Assembly: GCF_001595645.1 (NCBI RefSeq)
Contig: NZ_LNKT01000045.1
Span: forward strand, 69,472-93,471
DNA: 24,000 bases
Direction of reading: 5' to 3'
From: Sulfurovum riftiae
GTDB lineage: Bacteria > Campylobacterota > Campylobacteria > Campylobacterales > Sulfurovaceae
Below the pieces are notes generated by a model. The model was not told where the DNA came from, did no database searches, and saw nothing but the letters and a program-made list of their open reading frames with translations. Positions 9,010-22,707 of the stretch are shown piece after piece (the stretch's first letter is position 1; the number at the start of each line of letters is the position of its first letter). A program made the position numbers and the translations under genes.

Positions 9010-10203
9010 ATGAAAACAGTAAAAGATATCGATATTGACGGCAAAAGAGTATTTATACGATGTGACTTCAACGTACCAAAAGACGAATTCGGTAACATCA
9101 CCGATGACAGACGTATCCGTTCTGCACTGCAGACGATCCGCTACTGCATTGACAGAGACTGCAAGATCATTCTTGCATCACATTATGAGAGACCGGAACC
9201 GGGCAAGTATGAAGAGAAATACTCTTTGAAACCCGTAGCAAAAAGGCTGCATACCCTTCTGAAGATCAAAAATGAACTCTATATGGCCAATGATGTGGTC
9301 GGTCCGGATGCCAAAGAGAAAGCGGCCAAACTGGAGGCAGGTGACGTTCTGATGCTTGAGAACCTTCGTTATGAAGCAGGGGAGACCAGCAATGATGAGG
9401 CATTTGCCAAAGAGTTGGCTTCCTTTGCCGATGTCTATATCAATGACGCTTTCGGTGCTTGCCATAGAAAGCATGCTTCTATCTATGCTATTGCAAAACA
9501 GTTCGACAGAGACCATAAAGCGGCAGGTTTTCTGATGGCAAAAGAAGTTAACTTCTTCAGCAAAGTACTTGAAGAACCTATCAGACCCTTTGTGGCGGTG
9601 GTAGGCGGATCGAAAGTATCGGGTAAACTTCAGGCTTTGACCAACCTCCTCAATAAAGTGGACAAAGTCATTATCGGCGGCGGTATGGCATTTACTTTTC
9701 TCAAGGCACAGGGCTATGAGATCGGCAAATCGCTGGTGGAGGATGACCTGATCGACGAAGCAAGGGACATCATGGAAAAAGCGCACTCTCTGGGTGTGAA
9801 ATTCTACCTCCCTGTCGATTTTGTCGTGGCACCGGAATTTTCAGAGAATACAGCAGTCAAATACCTTCCTTCCCAGGAGATCCCTCATGACTGGATGGGG
9901 CTCGATACGGGACCGGCCTCTTCAAGACTTTTCCGTGAAGTGCTCAACGATGCACAGACGATCATCTGGAACGGGCCAATGGGCGTGTACGAGATGGACA
10001 AGTTCTCCAAAGGGAGTATCATGATGTCTCACCATATCGCGGAGACACATGCAACGACCATTGTTGGCGGTGGTGATACTGCTGATGTGGCACAAAGAGC
10101 CGGGGATGTGGATGAAATGACCTTTGTCAGTACCGGAGGCGGTGCAAGCCTCAAGCTGATAGAGGGAATCAAACTTCCCGGTCTTGAAGCATTAGAAAAG
10201 TGA
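9010..10203 (+). CDS. pgk: Phosphoglycerate kinase
   Basis: RxDFNVP, GGAKVSxK-like (GGSKVSGK), GGGDT and STGGGA motifs. The stop codon TGA forms the first 3 nt of the heptamer array. Confidence 0.96.
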
Positions 10204-10228
10204 ACAGAGTACAGTGAACAATGAACAA
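10199..10228 (+). repeat. Cassette 1, 5' arm: tandem heptamers TGAACAG/AGTACAG/TGAACAA/TGAACAA
   Basis: 7-nt periodicity read directly. 10209-10223 (GTACAGTGAACAATG) is the perfect reverse complement of 10582-10596. The arm contains the pgk stop and the four-helix-bundle ATG. Confidence 0.9.
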
Positions 10229-10580
10229 TAATATTTTGAGTGAAAAAAGTTTTTCTTTTGCCCTTAGAATCATTAAATTGTCATCGTTCCTAACTGATAA
10301 AAAAAGAGAGTATACTCTTTCAAAACAGATTTTACGAAGTGGTACTTCAATTGGTGCTTTGGTGCGTGAAGCACAATATGCACAGTCCAAATCGGATTTT
10401 ATTCATAAATTAAGTATTGCACTTAAAGAAGCCAATGAAACAGAATATTGGTTGCAGTTATTGGTAGAGTCTGAATATATAAGTCGTAAGATGTTTGAAA
10501 GTATTGAACCAGAAATAAAAGAGTTATTGAGATTATTGATCTCAAGTATAAAAACCACAAAACAAAATATAAATACATAA
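10221..10580 (+). CDS. Four-helix-bundle protein (23S rRNA intervening-sequence protein family, TIGR02436/PF05635, Avd-like), copy 1
   Basis: Family-typical KSFSFALRIIKL...LSKQILRSGTSIGALVREAQYAQSKSDFIHKLSIALKEANETEYWLQLL. About 119 aa. Much more AT-rich than pgk and tpiA. Confidence 0.9.
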   Translation: MNNNILSEKSFSFALRIIKLSSFLTDKKREYTLSKQILRSGTSIGALVREAQYAQSKSDFIHKLSIALKEANETEYWLQLLVESEYISRKMFESIEPEIKELLRLLISSIKTTKQNINT

Positions 10581-10581
10581 G

Positions 10582-10614
10582 CATTGTTCACTGTACATTG
10601 TACATTGTTCACTG
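10582..10614 (+). repeat. Cassette 1, 3' arm: tandem heptamers CATTGTT/CACTGTA/CATTGTA/CATTGTT/CACTG
   Basis: 7-nt periodicity. Inverted complement of the 5' arm. Starts 2 nt after the ORF stop and ends just before the tpiA RBS (AAAGGA). Confidence 0.9.
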
Positions 10615-11316: not shown

Positions 11317-11327
11317 GAAATTGGAGT

Positions 11328-11363
11328 CGGGACTTCAGTCCCGTTAACGCGACTGAAGTCGCG
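11328..11363. terminator. Twin hairpins between convergent tpiA and nusA
   Basis: CGGGAC-TTCA-GTCCCG (11328-11343) and CGCGAC-TGAA-GTCGCG (11348-11363), arranged around a central GTTAAC. No clean U-tract on either strand, so terminator function is uncertain. Confidence 0.5.
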
Positions 11364-11379
11364 ATTCCTGGAGGAGGTT

Positions 11380-15063: not shown

Positions 15064-15900
15064 ATGAAAGAGAAGCTTCAAAACTATGTAGAAGATTTTC
15101 TTGAATATCTTCTTGATGTTCGCGGGTACTCTGAACTTTCTGTGGAGACCTACGAGATCGCGTTGCGACAGATGGGTGAGGTGAGCCATTTTTATGAAGA
15201 GGACGGCATGACGGTGCTCGATATCACCCCATTTCGTTTCAAGATCGTTAAAAACAGTAAAAAGACCATTGTCAAAAAACTCTCAGCCGTGCGCTCTTTC
15301 GTCAAATACCTTGAAGAGCAGTGCCATCTTTTGGTCAAACTCATTGCAGATGAGTCCATAAAGGTACCCCAAAGCCTCCCCAAGCCTATTGAAGAGCAGT
15401 ATATAGACGAGGTGTTGGAGAAGGCCAATTTGGAGGAGAAACTGCTTATAACGATGTTGTATGGTTTGGGACTGAGAATTTCTGAACTCAGTGGGATGAA
15501 ACTGGAAGATATCAAAGGTGAGTGGGTACAGATACATGGGAAAGGGAATAAAGTAAGAGAGTTGCCTTTGATGGAGGAATTAACGAGACTGATCAAATTG
15601 TATCGTGACCGTTATGTGCCTAAAAGGTATCTTTTTGAAAAAGGCAATGCTCCGATGAACGCGGCACAACTGCGCTACAAATTGACAAAACTCTTTAAAA
15701 AAGAGGGGCTGAAGGTCACCCCTCATCAACTGCGCCACTCTTTTGCGACACATCTTCTCAACCATGGTGCAAGAATAGCCGATGTCAGCGAACTCCTGGG
15801 GCATGAGACGATGGCCACGACACAGGTCTATACCAAACTTGGGTCGGTAAAGAAGATGCAGGAGTATATGAAGGCGCATCCACTCGCAAAAGAGGAGTGA
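15064..15900 (+). CDS. xerH: Tyrosine site-specific recombinase, XerH/XerC-D type
   Basis: Catalytic motifs LGLRISE (Arg I), HQLRHSFATHLL (H-x-x-R), LLGHETMATTQVYT (catalytic Tyr). GGAGG RBS. Confidence 0.85.
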   Translation: MKEKLQNYVEDFLEYLLDVRGYSELSVETYEIALRQMGEVSHFYEEDGMTVLDITPFRFKIVKNSKKTIVKKLSAVRSFVKYLEEQCHLLVKLIADESIKVPQSLPKPIEEQYIDEVLEKANLEEKLLITMLYGLGLRISELSGMKLEDIKGEWVQIHGKGNKVRELPLMEELTRLIKLYRDRYVPKRYLFEKGNAPMNAAQLRYKLTKLFKKEGLKVTPHQLRHSFATHLLNHGARIADVSELLGHETMATTQVYTKLGSVKKMQEYMKAHPLAKEE

Positions 15901-15948
15901 CCCTTCGACAGGCTCAGGGACCGAGGAAAAAAATCGTTTATCCCGTAG

Positions 15949-15975
15949 GGTGGGCTTCAGCCCACCTTTCTTTAC
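15949..15975 (+). terminator. Hairpin plus T-rich tail downstream of xerH (first hairpin of a double-hairpin element)
   Basis: GGTGGGC-TTCA-GCCCACC followed by TTTCTTTAC. Confidence 0.55.
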
Positions 15976-16036
15976 AATTCGGATTTGAAATAATAATCCA
16001 TTTGTCTATAGGTTTTTTGGTGGGCTAAAGCCCACC

Positions 16037-17020
16037 CTACGGAAGTATTGTTAGGTCAATATTTTCCCGGTACAAATACGCTCTGATCTTGGGAGGAATC
16101 CTTTTGACCCTGCACTTTTCTTTGAATTCTTTTGGCATATCTGTTGTAACGTAGGGGGCAACATAAAGAAGGTCATCCTCTATTTCAATTGCCCACTCCC
16201 CACCAATGACCAGACTTTTTTCTCTTGCTATTTCTTCTCTCTGAGCAGAGGAAAGAAGATATCCCAGTTTTTTCAGTGTAAGGTCAGCAGCTTTTACTTT
16301 TGAACTAGTCTGCCTGAGTTTGATGATACGCAGTTGTTTTTCAGCGAAAAGCGTTTCGAAACCGGATTCGAGCAGTTTTTTATCGTCTCTCAGATAGGAA
16401 AAACTTCGTTTGATCCCCTCTCTGAATTGGGAAATGAGCGGATCGGAAAACGCTTTTCTAAAACGGTTACGTTCATATTTTTCATTGCTGTTGCTGTCGT
16501 CTATGAAATAGGGATAGTTATGTATTTCTAAATAATCAAGCAGTTCTTCCTTGGAATATTCAAGAAGAGGTCGAATCAAAGTATATCCATCCCTTTTACT
16601 TACTGGTTCAAGCCCAATGAGTTCTGAAAGCCCGGCTCCTTTGGTCAGGCGCATAAAAAGCCATTCAAGCTGGTCGTTCAGTTGATGTGCGGTCAGAAGC
16701 GTATCGTAGCCATGTTCTGCAATAAGGGTTTCAAAAAAATCGTAGCGGAATTTTCGTGCGTTTGCTTCAAAATGAGTTTTGAATACTGGTGCCTTGGTGG
16801 TGTAACACTTTTTGCCATATTTTTTCGCCAATGCTTTGGCATGCTCCTCTTCCTTGTTACTTTCCGGTCGTGTTCCGTAATTCACCAACGCGATATCGAA
16901 AGGGATATTGTTTTCCAAAAGAAGGAAAAAGAGGGCGGAAGAGTCTATTCCTGCTGAGAAGGCGAGCAGATTCTTCTTTTGAAGTAGGAAGTAGGAAGTA
17001 GGAAGTAGCAATTGAGACAT
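16037..17020 (-). CDS. tilS: tRNA(Ile)-lysidine synthetase
   Basis: PP-loop SAGIDSS (SGGxDS type) and a TilS-like central region. The first ~13 codons (MSQLLLPTSYFLL) are encoded by cassette/repeat sequence. The ATG overlaps the upstream four-helix-bundle stop (TAATG). Confidence 0.88.
   Translation of the reverse strand: MSQLLLPTSYFLLQKKNLLAFSAGIDSSALFFLLLENNIPFDIALVNYGTRPESNKEEEHAKALAKKYGKKCYTTKAPVFKTHFEANARKFRYDFFETLIAEHGYDTLLTAHQLNDQLEWLFMRLTKGAGLSELIGLEPVSKRDGYTLIRPLLEYSKEELLDYLEIHNYPYFIDDSNSNEKYERNRFRKAFSDPLISQFREGIKRSFSYLRDDKKLLESGFETLFAEKQLRIIKLRQTSSKVKAADLTLKKLGYLLSSAQREEIAREKSLVIGGEWAIEIEDDLLYVAPYVTTDMPKEFKEKCRVKRIPPKIRAYLYRENIDLTILP
16981..17008. repeat. Cassette 2 arm: (GAAGTAG)x4, perfect, lying inside tilS codons 4-13
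   Basis: Four identical tandem heptamers read directly. Reverse complement of 17373-17396 (24 nt, perfect). Confidence 0.95.
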
Positions 17021-17373
17021 TATATAGATTCTTTGATTTTTTTTGTACTTGAAATAAGAAGTTTTAGAAGCTCATCTATTTCAGGAGCAATACTATTGTA
17101 CATTTTCTCATTGATATAATTAGATTCATTGAGTATTAAGAGCCAATATTCTGTTTCATTTGCTTCTTTAAGTGCGATAGTAAGCTTGTGTAGAAAATCA
17201 GCTGTTGATTGTGCATATTGTGCTTCTCTTATGAGTGCTCCAATGGATGTTCCACTTCGTAAAATTTGTTTTGAAAGTATATGTTCTTTGTGATTTTTCT
17301 GTAAATACTGGGAAAGCTTGACAATACGTAAGGCAAAAGAGAAACTTTTGTCGCGTAAGAGATCTTTTTTCAT
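17020..17373 (-). CDS. Four-helix-bundle protein (23S rRNA IVS protein / Avd-like family), copy 2
   Basis: KSFSFALRIVKL...LSKQILRSGTSIGALIREAQYAQSTADFLHKLTIALKEANETEYWLLIL. 117 aa and AT-rich. Lies 2 nt after the rimO stop and overlaps the tilS start by 1 nt. Confidence 0.9.
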   Translation of the reverse strand: MKKDLLRDKSFSFALRIVKLSQYLQKNHKEHILSKQILRSGTSIGALIREAQYAQSTADFLHKLTIALKEANETEYWLLILNESNYINEKMYNSIAPEIDELLKLLISSTKKIKESI

Positions 17374-17399
17374 TCCTACTTCCTACTTCCTACTTCCTC
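17373..17399. repeat. Cassette 2 arm: (TTCCTAC)x3 plus one degenerate unit, forming the rimO C-terminus and stop and reaching the first base of the four-helix-bundle start codon
   Basis: Read directly. Encodes the RimO tail ..SEEVGSRK* on the minus strand. Perfect 24-nt complement of 16981-17008. Confidence 0.95.
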
Positions 17400-18704
17400 A
17401 CTGATGAGTGTTGCCAGCAATTGGCTTCCTACCAGTTCTGTCACCTTTGCTTCATACACTTTTCCATATTCGACCGGGAGGTCGGAAGTGTCGTTGATGA
17501 GGACCTCACCATCAATATCTACTGCCCACTGAAGCGGCCTGGCAGAGAGAAGGTACTCATGCTCGTCGCTTTCGCCGTCGATGACAAGTTCAATGGTCTT
17601 GCTTACCATTTTTTCCAACGATCTTAATGTTGAGGCTTCAGCGATCTCCCCGAGTATCTCTGCTCTCTCATCGATGATCTCCTGGGGGATCTGCTGCATT
17701 GCATAGGCTGTTGTGGTTTCCTCATTGGAATAATGGAAAGTATTGAATCTGTCGAAGCCGAAGTTTTCCATGAAGGTACAGAGTTTCTCAAAGCTCTCCT
17801 GTGTCTCTCCCGGATGCCCTGCAATGACAGAGGTTCTCAGGAAAGCATTGGGTTTGCTTTTCATGTATTCAAGCAGCTCGATGGTTTTCTGCTCGCCAAA
17901 ACCACGCTTCATGATCTTGAGTACAGCATCGTCGATGTGCTGGATAGGCATATCATAGTAGGTCTGGAAGATCTTTGAGTCGGCAATGGCATCGATGAGT
18001 GCAAAGGTGGTCGTGCTTGGATAAAGGTACAGAATACGTGCCGAGCGTACACCTTCAATGGATTCAACAGCATTGATGAGGTCGATGAGTCCGTCTTTGA
18101 GACCCATATCTCTTCCGTAACTCGAGGAGTCCTGTGAGATGAAGGAGAAGTCATAATAGCCTTGTGCAGCCAGCATAGTTACTTCTTTTTCAATGGAAGA
18201 GAGCGAGCGTGAATGCAGTTTTCCTTTGAAGCTCGGAATGGCACAGAAGGAGCAGGCCTGGTTACACCCCTCGGCGATCTTGATATAGGCATGGTAATTC
18301 GAACCGGTAATGACCCTGCCGGAAGTTTCTGTTGCCAGGTAGACTTCCGGGGAGAAGGTACTCTGTTTTGAAGCAATGAGTTCATCGATCTTCTCATAGT
18401 CACCCACACCGGTAAAGATATCGATCTCCGGCATATCCTGCTGAAGCTCCTCTTTGTAACGTTCTGAAAGACAGCCGCTCATGACAAGGATGGACTCTTC
18501 TTTTCGCTGGTTATGCAGTTCCAGTACTGTGTTGATACTCTCTTCTTTTGCCGCATCGATGAAGCCGCAGGTATTGACGATAATGACATCGGCTTCTGTA
18601 TTGTCATCGGTGATCTCATACTCTTTGAGACGGCCAAGCATCACTTCGCTGTCAACAAGGTTTTTGGTACAGCCAAGGCTTACCAGATGTAGTTTTTTAG
18701 ACAT
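17376..18704 (-). CDS. rimO: Ribosomal protein S12 methylthiotransferase
   Basis: MSKKLHLVSLGCTKNLVDSE N-terminus, radical SAM CNQACSFC, TRAM domain. I prefer ATG 18704 to the ORF-track start at 18779. Confidence 0.92.
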   Translation of the reverse strand: MSKKLHLVSLGCTKNLVDSEVMLGRLKEYEITDDNTEADVIIVNTCGFIDAAKEESINTVLELHNQRKEESILVMSGCLSERYKEELQQDMPEIDIFTGVGDYEKIDELIASKQSTFSPEVYLATETSGRVITGSNYHAYIKIAEGCNQACSFCAIPSFKGKLHSRSLSSIEKEVTMLAAQGYYDFSFISQDSSSYGRDMGLKDGLIDLINAVESIEGVRSARILYLYPSTTTFALIDAIADSKIFQTYYDMPIQHIDDAVLKIMKRGFGEQKTIELLEYMKSKPNAFLRTSVIAGHPGETQESFEKLCTFMENFGFDRFNTFHYSNEETTTAYAMQQIPQEIIDERAEILGEIAEASTLRSLEKMVSKTIELVIDGESDEHEYLLSARPLQWAVDIDGEVLINDTSDLPVEYGKVYEAKVTELVGSQLLATLISEEVGSRK

Positions 18705-18734
18705 AGTTTTTCTTTTAGTTATAAAATTTTTGAG

Positions 18735-18743
18735 ATTATAGCA
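18735..18743 (-). promoter_or_regulatory. Extended -10 (TGCTATAAT) candidate promoter for rimO
   Basis: The minus-strand sequence TGCTATAAT lies about 31 nt upstream of the rimO ATG. Confidence 0.5.
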
Positions 18744-18843
18744 TATTCTTGTAGATAGAAAAATCGAAGGATCCGTCATTCTCGGCTTGACTGGGAATCT
18801 ATAGATATCGTTCTAAATAATAAGGTTTGAATTTTTTTAAGGG

Positions 18844-18885
18844 AAAATAAAAAAGAGGCAAGAGCCGGGCCGCAGGCCCGAACTC
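18844..18885 (-). terminator. Rho-independent terminator of the porin gene
   Basis: Minus strand: GAGTTCGGGCC-TGC-GGCCCGGCTC followed by TTGCCTCTTTTTTATTTT. Confidence 0.85.
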
Positions 18886-18913
18886 TCTGTGTTACAACGT
18901 TAAGAACTGATTC

Positions 18914-20371
18914 TTAGAAGTCGTAAGAAGCGATTAGACGGATAACGTTGTTTGTTTCTGGAATAAATGCACCAGTGTTACCACTGTCATCTCTGTTAGG
19001 ATTGTTTGAACCCCAGTCGAAATCTTGGTTAATCCACATTGCTTTAAGACCAAGGTCTCCATAAGCAGTGTTGAATTTTGTAGCATAGATGAAGTCAAAT
19101 TCATTGAAGTCATGATCATTTCCATCTAAACCATCTTCAACATCGGAAGCACCGTATGCAGCGATGAATTTACCACCAAGACCTTTGTATATACCTTTGA
19201 TCATCCATGTGTCAACATCACCCTGATGTCCATCGATGAAGATCTGGTTAAGAACCATCTGAGTATAGAGTGGAGATTTAACACCTGTACCGAAGTTTGT
19301 TACAGTAAGACCACCATCTGTGTCTACACCCGTATAGGCAGCCAATGCACTGAAGTCACCCCAGTGTCCACCTACTTTTACACCCCATGCAGTTGTGCTG
19401 TCTACAACAATGTCACTTGCATCAAGGTATCCACCTTGAAGGCCGAATTCTACAGGGAAGTCAGCAGTGTTGTATGCAAGATCACCCCAAAGTACATCAA
19501 CATCTACGTCTGCACCATTAACACCACCACCTTTAATAGCAGATGGAGCATAATAGTATGTACCTGTTGCTGTCAAACCTGCAATAGATTTGTTCTGTGC
19601 AGTCAACATATAGACACCATCATCAGCAATTCTTTCCCAGTCAGCCATATCATGAGTACTGGTAATTGCTACAATTGAACCAGCCCAGCTACGAGAACCG
19701 TTTGCTCTAGTTACATAAGCACCGACCAAAGTTGTGTCTGGAAGGTCTGTGTTAACAACAAGTGCTGCTTCAAATGTGTTCTTGAAGATATTCCAACCCT
19801 CAGAGAATGCAAATGGAGAAAGAGATTTAGGAAGTTCTTGACGACCTATTTTGATTGAAGTATTAGCGATACCATATGTCAAGTATGCCTGGCTGATCCA
19901 TGCTCCACTCAATGCATTGTCTGCATCTTTTGTACCATTCAAGAATGCATCCTGCTCACCAACACTTTGCATACTACCTGTCACAACACCATAGTCTACA
20001 AGGTTTAGAGTTGAAAGACCAGTAAGCTCAGCACCGAAACCGATACCTGCGATCACGTCTTTGTTGCTTACTCTGAGTTGAAGACCAGCATCTGCTGCAG
20101 AAGATCTTCTGTCAAACATATCGTTGTCAGCACCTACGATAGGCCCAGCAACACCACCACCTGGTAGTCCACCGTATGGTAGTATATTGAGGCCGCCTGC
20201 CCCAAGTGCACCATAAACAAAGTTCTGGTGATCCATTGTCTGGTAATAAACTTTTGCTGTTCCACTCCACTCCCAGTTGGAAGTTTCCTCTACTACTGGT
20301 GCTGGAGCGATATCACCGCCCGCCATAACTGCTACTGAAGCCACTACTGAAAGTAATAATGCTTTTTTCAT
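18914..20371 (-). CDS. Major outer membrane porin (Campylobacter MOMP/PorA-like)
   Basis: Signal peptide MKKALLLSVVASVAVMAGG. G/Y/T/D-rich beta-barrel composition. C-terminal ..LIASYDF. Consensus promoter, AGGAG RBS and a strong terminator suggest high expression. Confidence 0.8.
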   Translation of the reverse strand: MKKALLLSVVASVAVMAGGDIAPAPVVEETSNWEWSGTAKVYYQTMDHQNFVYGALGAGGLNILPYGGLPGGGVAGPIVGADNDMFDRRSSAADAGLQLRVSNKDVIAGIGFGAELTGLSTLNLVDYGVVTGSMQSVGEQDAFLNGTKDADNALSGAWISQAYLTYGIANTSIKIGRQELPKSLSPFAFSEGWNIFKNTFEAALVVNTDLPDTTLVGAYVTRANGSRSWAGSIVAITSTHDMADWERIADDGVYMLTAQNKSIAGLTATGTYYYAPSAIKGGGVNGADVDVDVLWGDLAYNTADFPVEFGLQGGYLDASDIVVDSTTAWGVKVGGHWGDFSALAAYTGVDTDGGLTVTNFGTGVKSPLYTQMVLNQIFIDGHQGDVDTWMIKGIYKGLGGKFIAAYGASDVEDGLDGNDHDFNEFDFIYATKFNTAYGDLGLKAMWINQDFDWGSNNPNRDDSGNTGAFIPETNNVIRLIASYDF

Positions 20372-20921: not shown

Positions 20922-22166
20922 TTAAAGTTGTTTTACCAGGTTCATAAAGATCTCTCCTCTTTGGGCGTAATTCTTGAACTGGTCAAAACTTGCAGCGGCG
21001 GGGGAGAGGAGGCCTACATCATCGGCCTGCATATTTTTGTCAATGGCATGTACGGCGTTTTCAAGTGTGTTTGATTCGACGGCAGGGATATTGTATTCCC
21101 TGGCAAGTGAAAGAAGTCTTTCGCTGTTCGCCCCGATCGTATATAATGTAAGTGAAACCTGGGACATGGCTTCAAAATAGGGGTGCAGGTCAACACCCTT
21201 GTCATCCCCCCCTGCAATGAGGTGGATGTGATGGTCGTCATAGGCCTTTATGGCCTGGACCGCGGCATCCACATTGGTTGCTTTGGAGTCATTCACCCAG
21301 AGTCTTCCTTGTGCATCGTGGAACTCCTGCTGCCTGTTGAGATCCATTTTGAAGGTATTGATACAGGCATAGTCCACTTCGTCGAAAAGGACACGGGTCA
21401 CTGCCAGTGCCAGCATGGCATCTTCCAGAAAGGCCGCTTTGAAGTTGATGAGGGCCGGGTCAATGTTGAAATAGTCCGAGAGGAAATCTGTGGAGTCGTA
21501 CTCGACGACAAAAGCATCTGTTTCAGGCAGGTTCAGCCCTTTGGGGACCAGTGCCAGCTCCCCCTCTTTCATGGTAAGCAGCGGACGGAGCTTGTCTGCC
21601 TCATAGGCCTCTTCCGTACCGTGCCAATCAAGATGATCCGGTGTGATGGGAAGCAGGAGATAAATATCCGGTGAGGCGGTCTTTGTATAGTGAAGGGCAT
21701 AGGAACTTGACTCGAGTACCCAGATGGGGGCTTCTGCATCCATTGCCGCCAAGGGTACGCCGATGTTTCCCCCGCTTACCGCACCCCTGTGTTCGAGCAG
21801 GTGGGTAAGCATCTGGGTGGTGGTGGTCTTGCCATTGGTGCCACTGATCCAAACTGTGAATGGCATATGCCGTTCAAGTGAAGAGTGAAGAGTGAAGAGT
21901 GAAGAATGATGTGGTGCCAGAATGTAGTCATATTCGCTCAAAAGATGTTTGGCTTTCTGAATGAGCGGATGGTTTGGCTTGAGGCTTGGTGTAGTGACCT
22001 CAAGTTCACTTTTGTCCGGATCGAACAGCGAAGAGGGCAGTATCTTGTTGCCTTCCTCATCTGTATAGGGTTCTTTGACATTGTCATCATAGAAGATACA
22101 TCCCCCTCCCAGCTTTTTGGCAATGGCTCTAGTGGTCAGTCCGTATCCGAATAGTGTGGGCTTCAT
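20922..22166 (-). CDS. murD: UDP-N-acetylmuramoylalanine--D-glutamate ligase
   Basis: Epsilon-type N-terminus MKPTLFGYGLTTRAIAKKL, P-loop GTNGKTTTT, Mur ligase central and C-terminal domains (NDSKATN). Carries an in-frame heptamer-array insertion just before the P-loop. Confidence 0.93.
   Translation of the reverse strand: MKPTLFGYGLTTRAIAKKLGGGCIFYDDNVKEPYTDEEGNKILPSSLFDPDKSELEVTTPSLKPNHPLIQKAKHLLSEYDYILAPHHSSLFTLHSSLERHMPFTVWISGTNGKTTTTQMLTHLLEHRGAVSGGNIGVPLAAMDAEAPIWVLESSSYALHYTKTASPDIYLLLPITPDHLDWHGTEEAYEADKLRPLLTMKEGELALVPKGLNLPETDAFVVEYDSTDFLSDYFNIDPALINFKAAFLEDAMLALAVTRVLFDEVDYACINTFKMDLNRQQEFHDAQGRLWVNDSKATNVDAAVQAIKAYDDHHIHLIAGGDDKGVDLHPYFEAMSQVSLTLYTIGANSERLLSLAREYNIPAVESNTLENAVHAIDKNMQADDVGLLSPAAASFDQFKNYAQRGEIFMNLVKQL
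21879..21907. repeat. Intragenic heptamer array (TGAAGAG)x3 plus TGAAGAA inside murD
   Basis: Read directly. Same sequence and orientation as the 22187-22216 arm. Translated on the minus strand as HHSSLFTLHSSLE. Confidence 0.9.
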
Positions 22167-22186
22167 GAAAAACTCCGCTTTTCAAA

Positions 22187-22216
22187 TGAAGAGTGAAGAG
22201 TGAAGAGTGAAGAGTG
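22187..22216. repeat. Cassette 3 arm: (TGAAGAG)x4 between the four-helix-bundle stop and the murD RBS
   Basis: Four perfect tandem heptamers. Reverse complement of 22657-22677. Confidence 0.95.
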
Positions 22217-22250
22217 TTGGTTTGCATTGCTGTGCAATGCTTCTATTATA

Positions 22251-22610
22251 TCAGGATGCATTGTTGATGTTCTCTTTTGCTGTTTTGATACTTGATGCAA
22301 GTATTTTTAAAAGGTGTTCTATATCGTCAAGGAGACTAAGTGCAAGTTTTTCCTGAAGATAATTACAGTCCTTTAAAAGCCGTAGCCAGTATTTTGTTTC
22401 ATTTGCTTCTTTAAGTGAAATAGATAGTTTATTGATAAAGTCAAGTTTTGATTGTGCATACTTGCCTTCTGCGATCAAGGCACCAATCGCCGTTCCTGAA
22501 CGTAAAAGCTGTTTGCTAAGAATAAATTCTTTTTTCTCTTGCTGTAAATACTCATTACATTTTACAATGCGAATGGAAAAATTGTAACTCTTCTCTTCTA
22601 GTATACTCAT
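22251..22610 (-). CDS. Four-helix-bundle protein (23S rRNA IVS protein / Avd-like family), copy 3
   Basis: KSYNFSIRIVKC...LSKQLLRSGTAIGALIAEGKYAQSKLDFINKLSISLKEANETKYWLRLL. 119 aa, AT-rich, and the most diverged of the three copies. Confidence 0.88.
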   Translation of the reverse strand: MSILEEKSYNFSIRIVKCNEYLQQEKKEFILSKQLLRSGTAIGALIAEGKYAQSKLDFINKLSISLKEANETKYWLRLLKDCNYLQEKLALSLLDDIEHLLKILASSIKTAKENINNAS

Positions 22611-22656
22611 GGTTCTTTCTCAAAAGATGGAAGCTTTCTGAAAGAAAGCATACCAC

Positions 22657-22688
22657 AACTCTTCACTCTTCACTCTTAATTCTTCACT
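22657..22688. repeat. Cassette 3 arm: ACTCTTC/ACTCTTC/ACTCTTA/ATTCTTC/ACTG between the mraY stop and the four-helix-bundle gene
   Basis: 7-nt periodicity. 22658-22677 is a perfect 20-nt complement of the (GAAGAGT)n arm. Confidence 0.9.
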
Positions 22689-22707
22689 GCTCAAAGTAAA
22701 GCTTTGA

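Follow-up and report, generated by a model that had tools for sequence, protein, structure and literature searches.

How can an inserted piece of DNA come to encode the end of one protein and the beginning of the next, and what becomes of the insert once it does? The junction between rimO and tilS in a 24,000-nt stretch of the Sulfurovum riftiae genome (contig NZ_LNKT01000045.1, positions 69,472 to 93,471; hereafter the window) raises this question. The inserted segment, referred to here as cassette 2, carries a gene for a 117-aa four-helix-bundle protein of the PF05635/TIGR02436 family, which we call IVP, between two inverted arms built from tandem heptamers. We consider it probable that cassette 2 is one member of a family of small, selfish-looking elements that have no promoter and occur widely, and that it now ends RimO, starts TilS and is expressed through translational coupling. 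The rimO, IVP and tilS genes all lie on the minus strand of the window, and the junction, in which Shine-Dalgarno-like (SD-like) motifs and parts of three open reading frames (ORFs) coincide, is composed as follows.

16981..17401, minus strand: whole cassette 2, 421 nt, comprising upstream arm, IVP gene, tilS start and downstream arm
17376..18704, minus strand: rimO (S12 methylthiotransferase), 442 aa as gene-called on the public contig; TIGR01125 match at 6.2e-116
17373..17401, minus strand: upstream (5') arm, GTGA + (GGAAGTA)n, purine-rich, with AGGA/GGAAG motifs that are SD-like; its final base is the A of the IVP ATG
17376..17378, minus strand: rimO stop TAG, within the upstream arm, 2 nt ahead of the IVP ATG
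17020..17373, minus strand: IVP gene, 117 aa, ATG at 17373-17371, its A being the final base of the arm
17018..17022, minus strand: TAATG, the IVP stop overlapping the tilS start
16981..17008, minus strand: downstream (3') arm, (CTACTTC)x4, pyrimidine-rich, no stop in any frame; encodes TilS residues 5-13 (LLPTSYFLL)
16037..17020, minus strand: tilS (tRNA-Ile lysidine synthetase), 327 aa; PF01171 match at 3.3e-54, TIGR02432 at 1.3e-49; protein 100% identical to TilS of Sulfurovum riftiae

An earlier note on this DNA had claimed that perfect inverted (GAAGTAG)n arms of 24 nt have become coding sequence of both neighbouring genes, and our repeat search and ORF coordinates bear this out. Both arms are 100% periodic (16981-17008 is (GAAGTAG)x4.0 and 17373-17398 is (TTCCTAC)x3.7) and form an inverted repeat of 24 nt at 100% (16981-17004 / 17373-17396) or of 27 nt at 96%, while the 14-mer GAAGTAGGAAGTAG occurs 5 times against 0.13 expected, a count reached in 0 of 100 shuffles. 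The coordinates likewise agree with that note in placing the rimO TAG (17378-17376) inside the upstream arm behind a RimO tail SEEVGSRK, the IVP ATG 2 nt past this stop with its A closing the arm, and the overlap TAATG at 17022-17018. RimO residues 460-467 (SEEVGSRK) and the TAG stop are encoded by the upstream arm, and the Pfam TRAM_2 match of RimO finishes at residue 459; on the other side, the PP-loop family match of TilS begins at residue 17. As read from the cassette, the N-terminus of TilS would be (M)SQLLLPTSYFLLQK and the C-terminus of RimO ...LLATLISEEVGSR. One detail required correction: the (CTACTTC)x4 array is present in tilS, but it does not occupy codons 4-13. The perfect array corresponds to codons 5-13 and one base of codon 14, and codon 4 is touched solely by the imperfect 27-nt form of the repeat. 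Apart from the ATG itself, a TTG at codon 4 is, as had been noted, the sole in-frame ATG/GTG/TTG codon ahead of the PP-loop motif. The maximal ORF of rimO extends over 17376..18779 and has 25 additional N-terminal codons at 18705-18779 on the minus strand; since gene callers begin at M26 (442 aa), this extension is probably not real.

What the junction looks like without the cassette can be seen in relatives. We gathered 80 Sulfurovum-like genomic loci via TilS, 75 of which hold both rimO and tilS, and rimO→tilS adjacency is kept in all 75. About 30 loci are empty: RimO ends in ...QLLATLIKAL before its stop, a spacer of 8-12 nt follows and TilS starts with MLTLDVSHLKEKKNLLAFS (MLTLDVSHLKE). 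Loci labelled Nitratifractor or Campylobacteraceae, which are the most divergent, are likewise empty and have TilS N-termini of the ML.L type. The boundaries of the insert were set by pairwise local alignment against the closest empty relative, L163, whose TilS is 80% identical. Homology to L163 ends at window position 17402 and picks up again at 16980; the 421 nt in between (16981..17401) stand in place of 51 nt of the L163 rimO–tilS junction, and the arms are located exactly at both ends of the inserted segment, as are the terminal inverted repeats (TIRs) of a miniature inverted-repeat transposable element (MITE). No target-site duplication was found at cassette 2, where the flanks read ...CTCATCA before the insert and AAAAGAAG... 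after it; the 51 nt are replaced, not duplicated. Because the insert replaces these 51 nt of the cassette-free junction, the RimO tail SEEVGSRK with its stop and the TilS peptide MSQLLLPTSYFLL are cassette-encoded. The earlier note had supposed that both peptides are lineage-specific add-ons and had called for a search for the locus without the cassette; the approximately 30 empty loci, with ATLIKAL and MLTLDVSHLKE in the respective positions, provide such a locus and uphold the supposition.

The same exchange of termini is seen across orthologous loci. Among 120 TilS homologues, N-termini either have the common form MLTLDxSHLKEKK-NLLAFS or correspond exactly to translated tandem heptamers of different kinds (LLPTSYF, FLIPHSS, CSLLTAH, LLPPTSY, FLISHFS). 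An IVP cassette is carried by 20 of the 75 rimO–tilS loci, all 20 of which have an arm-coded RimO tail after ...ATL(I/L) and arm-coded TilS residues before KKNLLAFS. The heptamers vary among these cassettes (GAAGTAG, ATGAGAA, ATGAGGA, ATGAAAG, ATGAAAA and GTGAGCA), three heptamer types have identical outer boundaries at this site, and cassette states are interleaved among close relatives in the TilS tree, which is poorly resolved. The pattern fits one old insertion between rimO and tilS, after which cassettes diverged and alleles were exchanged by way of the flanks. The shared outer boundaries speak for such a history, but the tree does not decide the matter, and insertion here on more than one occasion may be an alternative.

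TilS makes lysidine, which is needed for reading AUA codons. Measured from where the IVP stop ends, a tilS-frame ATG is located at -11..+4 nt in 20 of 22 cassette loci, with the stop/start patterns TAATG, ATGA, TAAATG and CATGCTAAATAA, and in 16 loci this ATG is the sole ATG/GTG/TTG before the PP-loop motif. The TTG at tilS codon 4 in the window is not conserved among cassette loci. Five loci consist of a solo 3' arm and the ATG and have no IVP gene. Where IVP was lost, L010 contains repetitive extragenic palindromic (REP)-like palindromes, L016 a GIY-YIG gene, L046 an IS200-like/REP-associated tyrosine transposase (RAYT) gene, and L070 and L073 another short insert. In two nested loci, L051 and L077, a more recent cassette with different arms has an older ATG+(TTCCTAC)n remnant still in place behind it, and L069 and L071 contain degenerate cassette footprints. 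The earlier note had proposed that tilS needs cassette-derived sequence for its initiation codon; the recurrent position of the ATG, its status as sole candidate in 16 loci and the retention of ATG and 3' arm after IVP loss support this and constitute direct comparative evidence, at the level of genome sequence, that TilS is dependent on cassette-derived sequence. The added peptide is predicted to lie outside the confidently folded core of TilS, because the AlphaFold2 model (mean predicted local distance difference test score, pLDDT, 89.7) has a pLDDT of 69 for residues 1-10 and its first core strand at residues 17-20. Inserted DNA would thus supply the start codon and the first residues of essential TilS, and this part outlasts the loss of IVP; the case illustrates in concrete terms how a selfish insert could become irremovable.

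The protein encoded within the cassette scores above the curated cut-offs of both PF05635 (7.5e-29, 100.5 bits, cut-off 33.8) and TIGR02436 (5.7e-31, 107 bits, cut-off 24), and its closest solved structure is PDB 2RLD (E=4e-34). PF05635 is named "four helix bundle proteins", and we know of no function established for it. Compared with orthologous cassettes, IVP has a ratio of nonsynonymous to synonymous substitution rates (dN/dS) of 0.05-0.2, with synonymous sites saturated, and IVP is thus a working gene under purifying selection. The arms are constrained at the nucleotide level: between the window and locus L002 they are identical at 31/32 and 27/28 nt, whereas identity over the intervening IVP gene is 77%, with saturated synonymous sites.

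Cassettes of this build are widespread. Retrieval of PF05635 yielded at least 8,000 clusters, and a metagenome scan with the IVP alignment gave 80 loci, 69 with usable flanks. Inverted arms were present in 55 of these 69, with a period of 7 in 53 of the 55; the median arm is 31 nt long at 92% complementarity and the median element measures 438 nt. The three cassettes of the window and the 55 metagenomic ones have differing heptamers and share no common terminal sequence. Neighbouring genes are co-oriented with IVP (upstream in ~63/66 loci, downstream in ~55/63), and the contexts are ordinary operons, among them HsdS→next gene, HlyD→ABC ATPase, cysD→cysN, argC→argD, murA→hisG and etfB→etfA. Arm-coded N-terminal peptides were also found in several other downstream proteins, including ABC ATPases and a response regulator. 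PF05635 is hereby tied to an architecture of inverted heptamer arms, about 440 nt in total and co-oriented within operons, and annotators should expect short repeat-coded N- or C-terminal extensions beside PF05635 genes. Some 5' arms are composite, with serial different arrays or alternating units such as GTGAGCA/AGTAGCA (L074 3021-3118; L035, L030 and L042), and because of such arms we consider that the sequences suggest arm turnover by array growth or serial insertion.

The window itself contains two sister cassettes.

10195..10614, plus strand: sister cassette 1 (pgk-IVP-tpiA), GTGAACA-type heptamers, Pgk stop in the first heptamer, 3' arm intergenic
22167..22704, minus strand: sister cassette 3 (mraY-IVP-murD), (TGAAGAG)n arms, clean insertion into an ancestral TAATG stop/start overlap

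Empty sites for cassette 3 are present in L165 and L166, and no target-site duplication is evident at cassette 3. A small additional hairpin lies in this cassette between the 5' arm and the start of IVP, and the cassette has a new SD (GCGGAG) for murD. Within murD (20922..22166, minus strand), an in-frame (CTCTTCA)n array at 21877-21909 encodes HHSSLFTLHSSLE in the linker before the GTNGKTT P-loop, and its heptamer is that of the cassette 3 arms, which lie ~280 nt upstream. Among 120 MurD homologues, ~35 have no insert at this place (SEYDYFDKEMPFSIWISG) and the others have inserts of 10-45 aa, many of them heptamer-coded; some of these resemble a mini-element without IVP whose two arms are both translated. 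A PDB sequence search for the MurD insert was uninformative as the MurD N-terminal domain did not align.

How would such an element function at a junction like that of rimO and tilS? According to the reading that we regard as probable, each cassette of the family would be a four-helix-bundle gene bracketed by inverted arms of cassette-specific tandem heptamers, and cassette 2 has taken the place of the end of the RimO coding sequence with its stop, of the spacer and of ~11 codons at the start of TilS in a co-directional rimO→tilS junction. The purine-rich 5' arm, with a stop in every heptamer, now terminates RimO, and its SD-like motifs, spaced 7 nt apart, would serve the IVP gene. The 3' end of the cassette would give tilS an ATG overlapping the IVP stop, and the pyrimidine-rich 3' arm, open in all frames, would be translated as TilS residues 5-13. 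Expression would proceed by read-through transcription followed by serial termination and reinitiation from rimO to IVP to tilS; tilS would therefore not be expressible without the 3' end of the cassette, and at least that part of the cassette would therefore be protected from deletion. We infer from this a stabilising ("addictive") effect of the cassette on itself. A promoter and terminator scan of 15900-19000 returned counts at the level of shuffles, and one promoter-like site within IVP (17305→17276) is evidence of nothing. The rimO stop and IVP start are 2 nt apart, IVP and tilS overlap in TAATG, and spacing is comparably tight in orthologues: in 19 of 20 orthologous cassettes the rimO stop falls at -4..+22 nt relative to where IVP starts; this geometry makes serial translational coupling plausible.

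Several points weigh against this account. The argument for coupling is one of gene spacing, and coupling is not a novelty brought by the cassette, because the ancestral junction, with its spacer of 8-12 nt, also has no strong SD: none was found before tilS in the window cassette or in the empty sites. In L032, the sequence that follows the ATG (ATGCTCACACT) agrees with the ancestral start of tilS, and for this reason the ATG may be ancestral rather than cassette-borne in some lineages. Capture of a start codon is not obligatory for the family, because cassette 3 is a clean insertion that leaves murD its own start intact. The poor resolution of the TilS tree also counts here, as does the origin of many loci from metagenome-assembled genomes. 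Among metagenomic cassettes, 5' arms are 71% purine and have stops in all three frames in 51% of cases (shuffles 19%), and 67% of 3' arms contain no stop in any frame (shuffles 35%). The all-frame-stop property thus applies to only about half of the arms and results largely from purine richness and the single T per unit. These frame properties also bear on a more specific idea, which we put forward tentatively and would not call likely: the heptamer arms could be the reading-frame adaptor of an unrecognised class of operon-junction elements that insert into coupled gene pairs, with start capture making their removal lethal. The 5' arm, by shutting all three frames, would be able to end any upstream gene, while the 3' arm, open in three frames, together with an ATG at the IVP stop would be able to restart any downstream gene. 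Since 7 mod 3 equals 1, one heptamer gained or lost shifts the frame by one, and repeat slippage could therefore bring a junction into frame.

Other explanations of the arms have to be set beside this. They might be DNA-level TIRs that serve mobility (of MITE or foldback type) or recognised hairpins, with their coding use incidental to a tight landing site and small deletions. This is a serious possibility, although we hold it somewhat short of even chances, and it is largely compatible with the reading preferred here rather than exclusive of it. It accounts for the placement of the arms exactly at the ends of the insert, for a site that is polymorphic for presence and absence with cassette types interleaved among close relatives, for three cassettes at different junctions within 24 kb and for IVP-less mini-versions in frame within murD, and the arms have no strand-specific wobble signature, as would suit a constraint acting on DNA. 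It has to contend with the missing target-site duplications at cassettes 2 and 3, with the absence of a transposase in or beside the cassette, and with the fact that identical arms at two different genomic sites were not seen; a sequence-specific transposase is unlikely because arms differ between copies. This explanation would not account for the conservation of an ATG at the IVP stop, nor for the asymmetry of the arms between strands. Alternatively, the arms could act as an RNA helix, as in the intervening sequences (IVSs) of 23S rRNA, in which case RNase III would excise or regulate the IVP segment through a stem of 24-27 bp and thereby control rimO and tilS. We regard this as doubtful. The predicted fold joins the arms in a 23+3 bp helix that closes the ORF, and a complementary closing stem of at least ~20 bp, as is typical of IVSs, is present (24 nt perfect, 27 nt at 96%). 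The folding z-score is -4.2 for a 451-nt stretch across the element and -8.9 for a minihairpin of the arms only (~-48 kcal/mol), which points to a strong stem in prediction. Size and architecture match the Coxiella IVS (PMC4990558), the arms are conserved far more than the surrounding coding sequence, and they covary within cassettes (median complementarity score 18 within against 8 between cassettes, n=88). But cleavage by RNase III in mid-stem would take off the rimO stop and sever the tilS ATG from its ORF, and ribosomes should hold the arms unpaired because both are translated. G·U mismatches between arms do not exceed A·C mismatches (31 vs 31), a wobble test of low power because register shifts of the arrays also create mismatches. 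In L003 and L032 the arms are perfectly periodic yet only ~71-86% complementary, and solo 3' arms persist without a partner. The structure-dependent control suggested in the earlier note is thus not supported by the mismatch counts, by these two loci or by the damage that a mid-stem cut would do to both neighbours, and arm complementarity may instead be a DNA-level property of the element.

A view of the arrays as primarily translation signals is, in our estimate, unlikely. Here, tandem SD-like or regulator-binding units would precede the start and the inverted copy would be an anti-SD-like mask. AGGA/GAGGA is present in the units, in many cases together with ATG or GTG, and the 7-nt period puts an SD 7 nt ahead of the start codon that ends the array. 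TAACTGA heptamer repeats in other bacteria moreover end 1 nt before start codons, contain stops in three frames and overlap upstream ORF ends (MacGregor 2015, PMC4679880). On the other hand, many arms elsewhere (AATTGAC, AGTTGAT) are without an SD-like core, no regulator is known, and the terminal position of the arms on the insert is left unexplained. It is very improbable that the cassette arrangement is ancestral, the empty junctions being secondary deletions and the peptides no add-ons. A cassette is indeed present at this junction in hosts with 53-60% TilS identity (L085, L129), but a conserved stretch of ~51 nt at empty sites has no counterpart in cassette loci, and a deletion could not produce it because this sequence would need recreating; the most divergent loci are empty with ML.L-type N-termini.

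Among described systems, the closest known thing to cassette 2 is the ORF-bearing 23S rRNA IVS of Coxiella and Leptospira, and cassette 2 is an IVS-type cassette living in mRNA operon junctions. The S23p IVS of Coxiella burnetii measures 428-444 nt and has a 28-bp stem, a PF05635 ORF and a mid-stem RNase III cut, and its ORF is reported to be decaying and apparently not translated (PMC4990558). Both kinds of element encode a PF05635 protein, are of similar size (421 nt here, family median 438 nt), have an ORF closed by complementary termini of 24-28 bp and are carried on a host transcript with no promoter of their own. Cassette 2 differs in lying between the protein-coding genes rimO and tilS and not in helix 9, 25 or 45, in having arms of tandem heptamers that are translated within neighbour proteins, in an IVP gene that is under purifying selection rather than decaying, and in neighbours that RNase III excision would damage. 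At Rfam gathering thresholds, the window yielded only a tRNA, no rRNA and nothing on the arms, and no rRNA was found in ten related loci, including six without an ORF called on at least one side; over the window, two spacer loci and the ten related loci, the hits were tRNAs and a DUF805b cis-regulatory motif in one unrelated locus. The architecture described here connects PF05635 genes of operons to the long-known ORF-bearing 23S rRNA IVSs. IVP genes have also been reported in association with cas operons and with arrays of CRISPR repeats, and those lying between cas genes were earlier read as functionally associated (PMC3936711, PMC10910872); they may instead be cassette insertions between operon genes.

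The TAACTGA direct repeats of Beggiatoaceae, Cyanobacteria and Bacteroidetes (MacGregor 2015, PMC4679880) resemble the arms in being heptamers directly upstream of start codons with a stop per unit that closes every frame, and in that some overlap upstream ORF ends and reverse-orientation copies are read as protein. They differ in comprising one conserved heptamer, with no inverted pairs around a gene and no link to PF05635, whereas the unit is GAAGTAG in cassette 2, changes from cassette to cassette and occurs in complementary arrays. Other comparisons are more distant. In Rickettsia palindromic elements and in-frame MITEs, an inverted-repeat mobile sequence joins host proteins without destroying them. 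The heptamer-coded linker inserts of MurD resemble these elements, which, however, carry no gene and insert inside ORFs, while cassette 2 carries a gene, sits at a junction and gives a stop and a start. Integron cassettes are small promoterless single-gene units with imperfect inverted repeats that are expressed by read-through; they have one attC, are captured by an integrase at attI and are stacked in arrays. Cassette 2 shares with them the small promoterless single-gene unit, read-through expression and inverted repeats, but has two arms flanking its gene, no integrase was seen, and the cassettes are scattered through housekeeping operons.

Avd of diversity-generating retroelements belongs to a distantly related protein family, with a weak NF033474 match here. 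A retroelement reading was rejected, as NF033474 scored 16.5 bits against a cut-off of 80 and no reverse transcriptase occurred among the called flanking genes and scanned ORFs; template and variable repeats were not searched. A CRISPR-like reading was likewise dismissed, the arrays being 3-5 units of 7 nt with no spacers, and Geobacter heptanucleotide elements are unrelated to the cassette arms. Full-text literature searches turned up no account of operon-borne IVP cassettes with heptamer arms; in papers on UCYN-A, Arthrospira and Nostoc, the PF05635-type gene figures by name only.

The rimO–tilS junction also hosts other sequences. It is a general insertion hot spot (L028, L029, L052, L016, L054, L046, L010), with inserts that include pairs of a nucleotidyltransferase and a HEPN/DUF86 gene; GIY-YIG genes, one of which lies within an IVP cassette; an IS200-like/RAYT gene accompanied by REP-like palindromes; and such palindromes on their own. 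In the rimO–tilS spacer of at least a dozen loci that lack IVP there is a conserved, apparently structured element of ~130-150 nt.

Spacer element loci: L007 (Sulfurovum sp. CS9), L017, L019, L021, L026, L034, L039, L058, L060, L064, L065, L067

The element reads aatcacgc..cttgtcgtggcgaacgcccttgaaagcggagcgattcgagagccacgacgcttttttgcttcg.., matches no Rfam family and is a candidate small RNA or cis-regulatory element. In the window, GC-rich REP-like palindromes (GGTGGGCTTCAGCCCACC and relatives), which are unrelated to the heptamer arms, occur downstream of tilS at 15943-16042 and again at 11323-11368.

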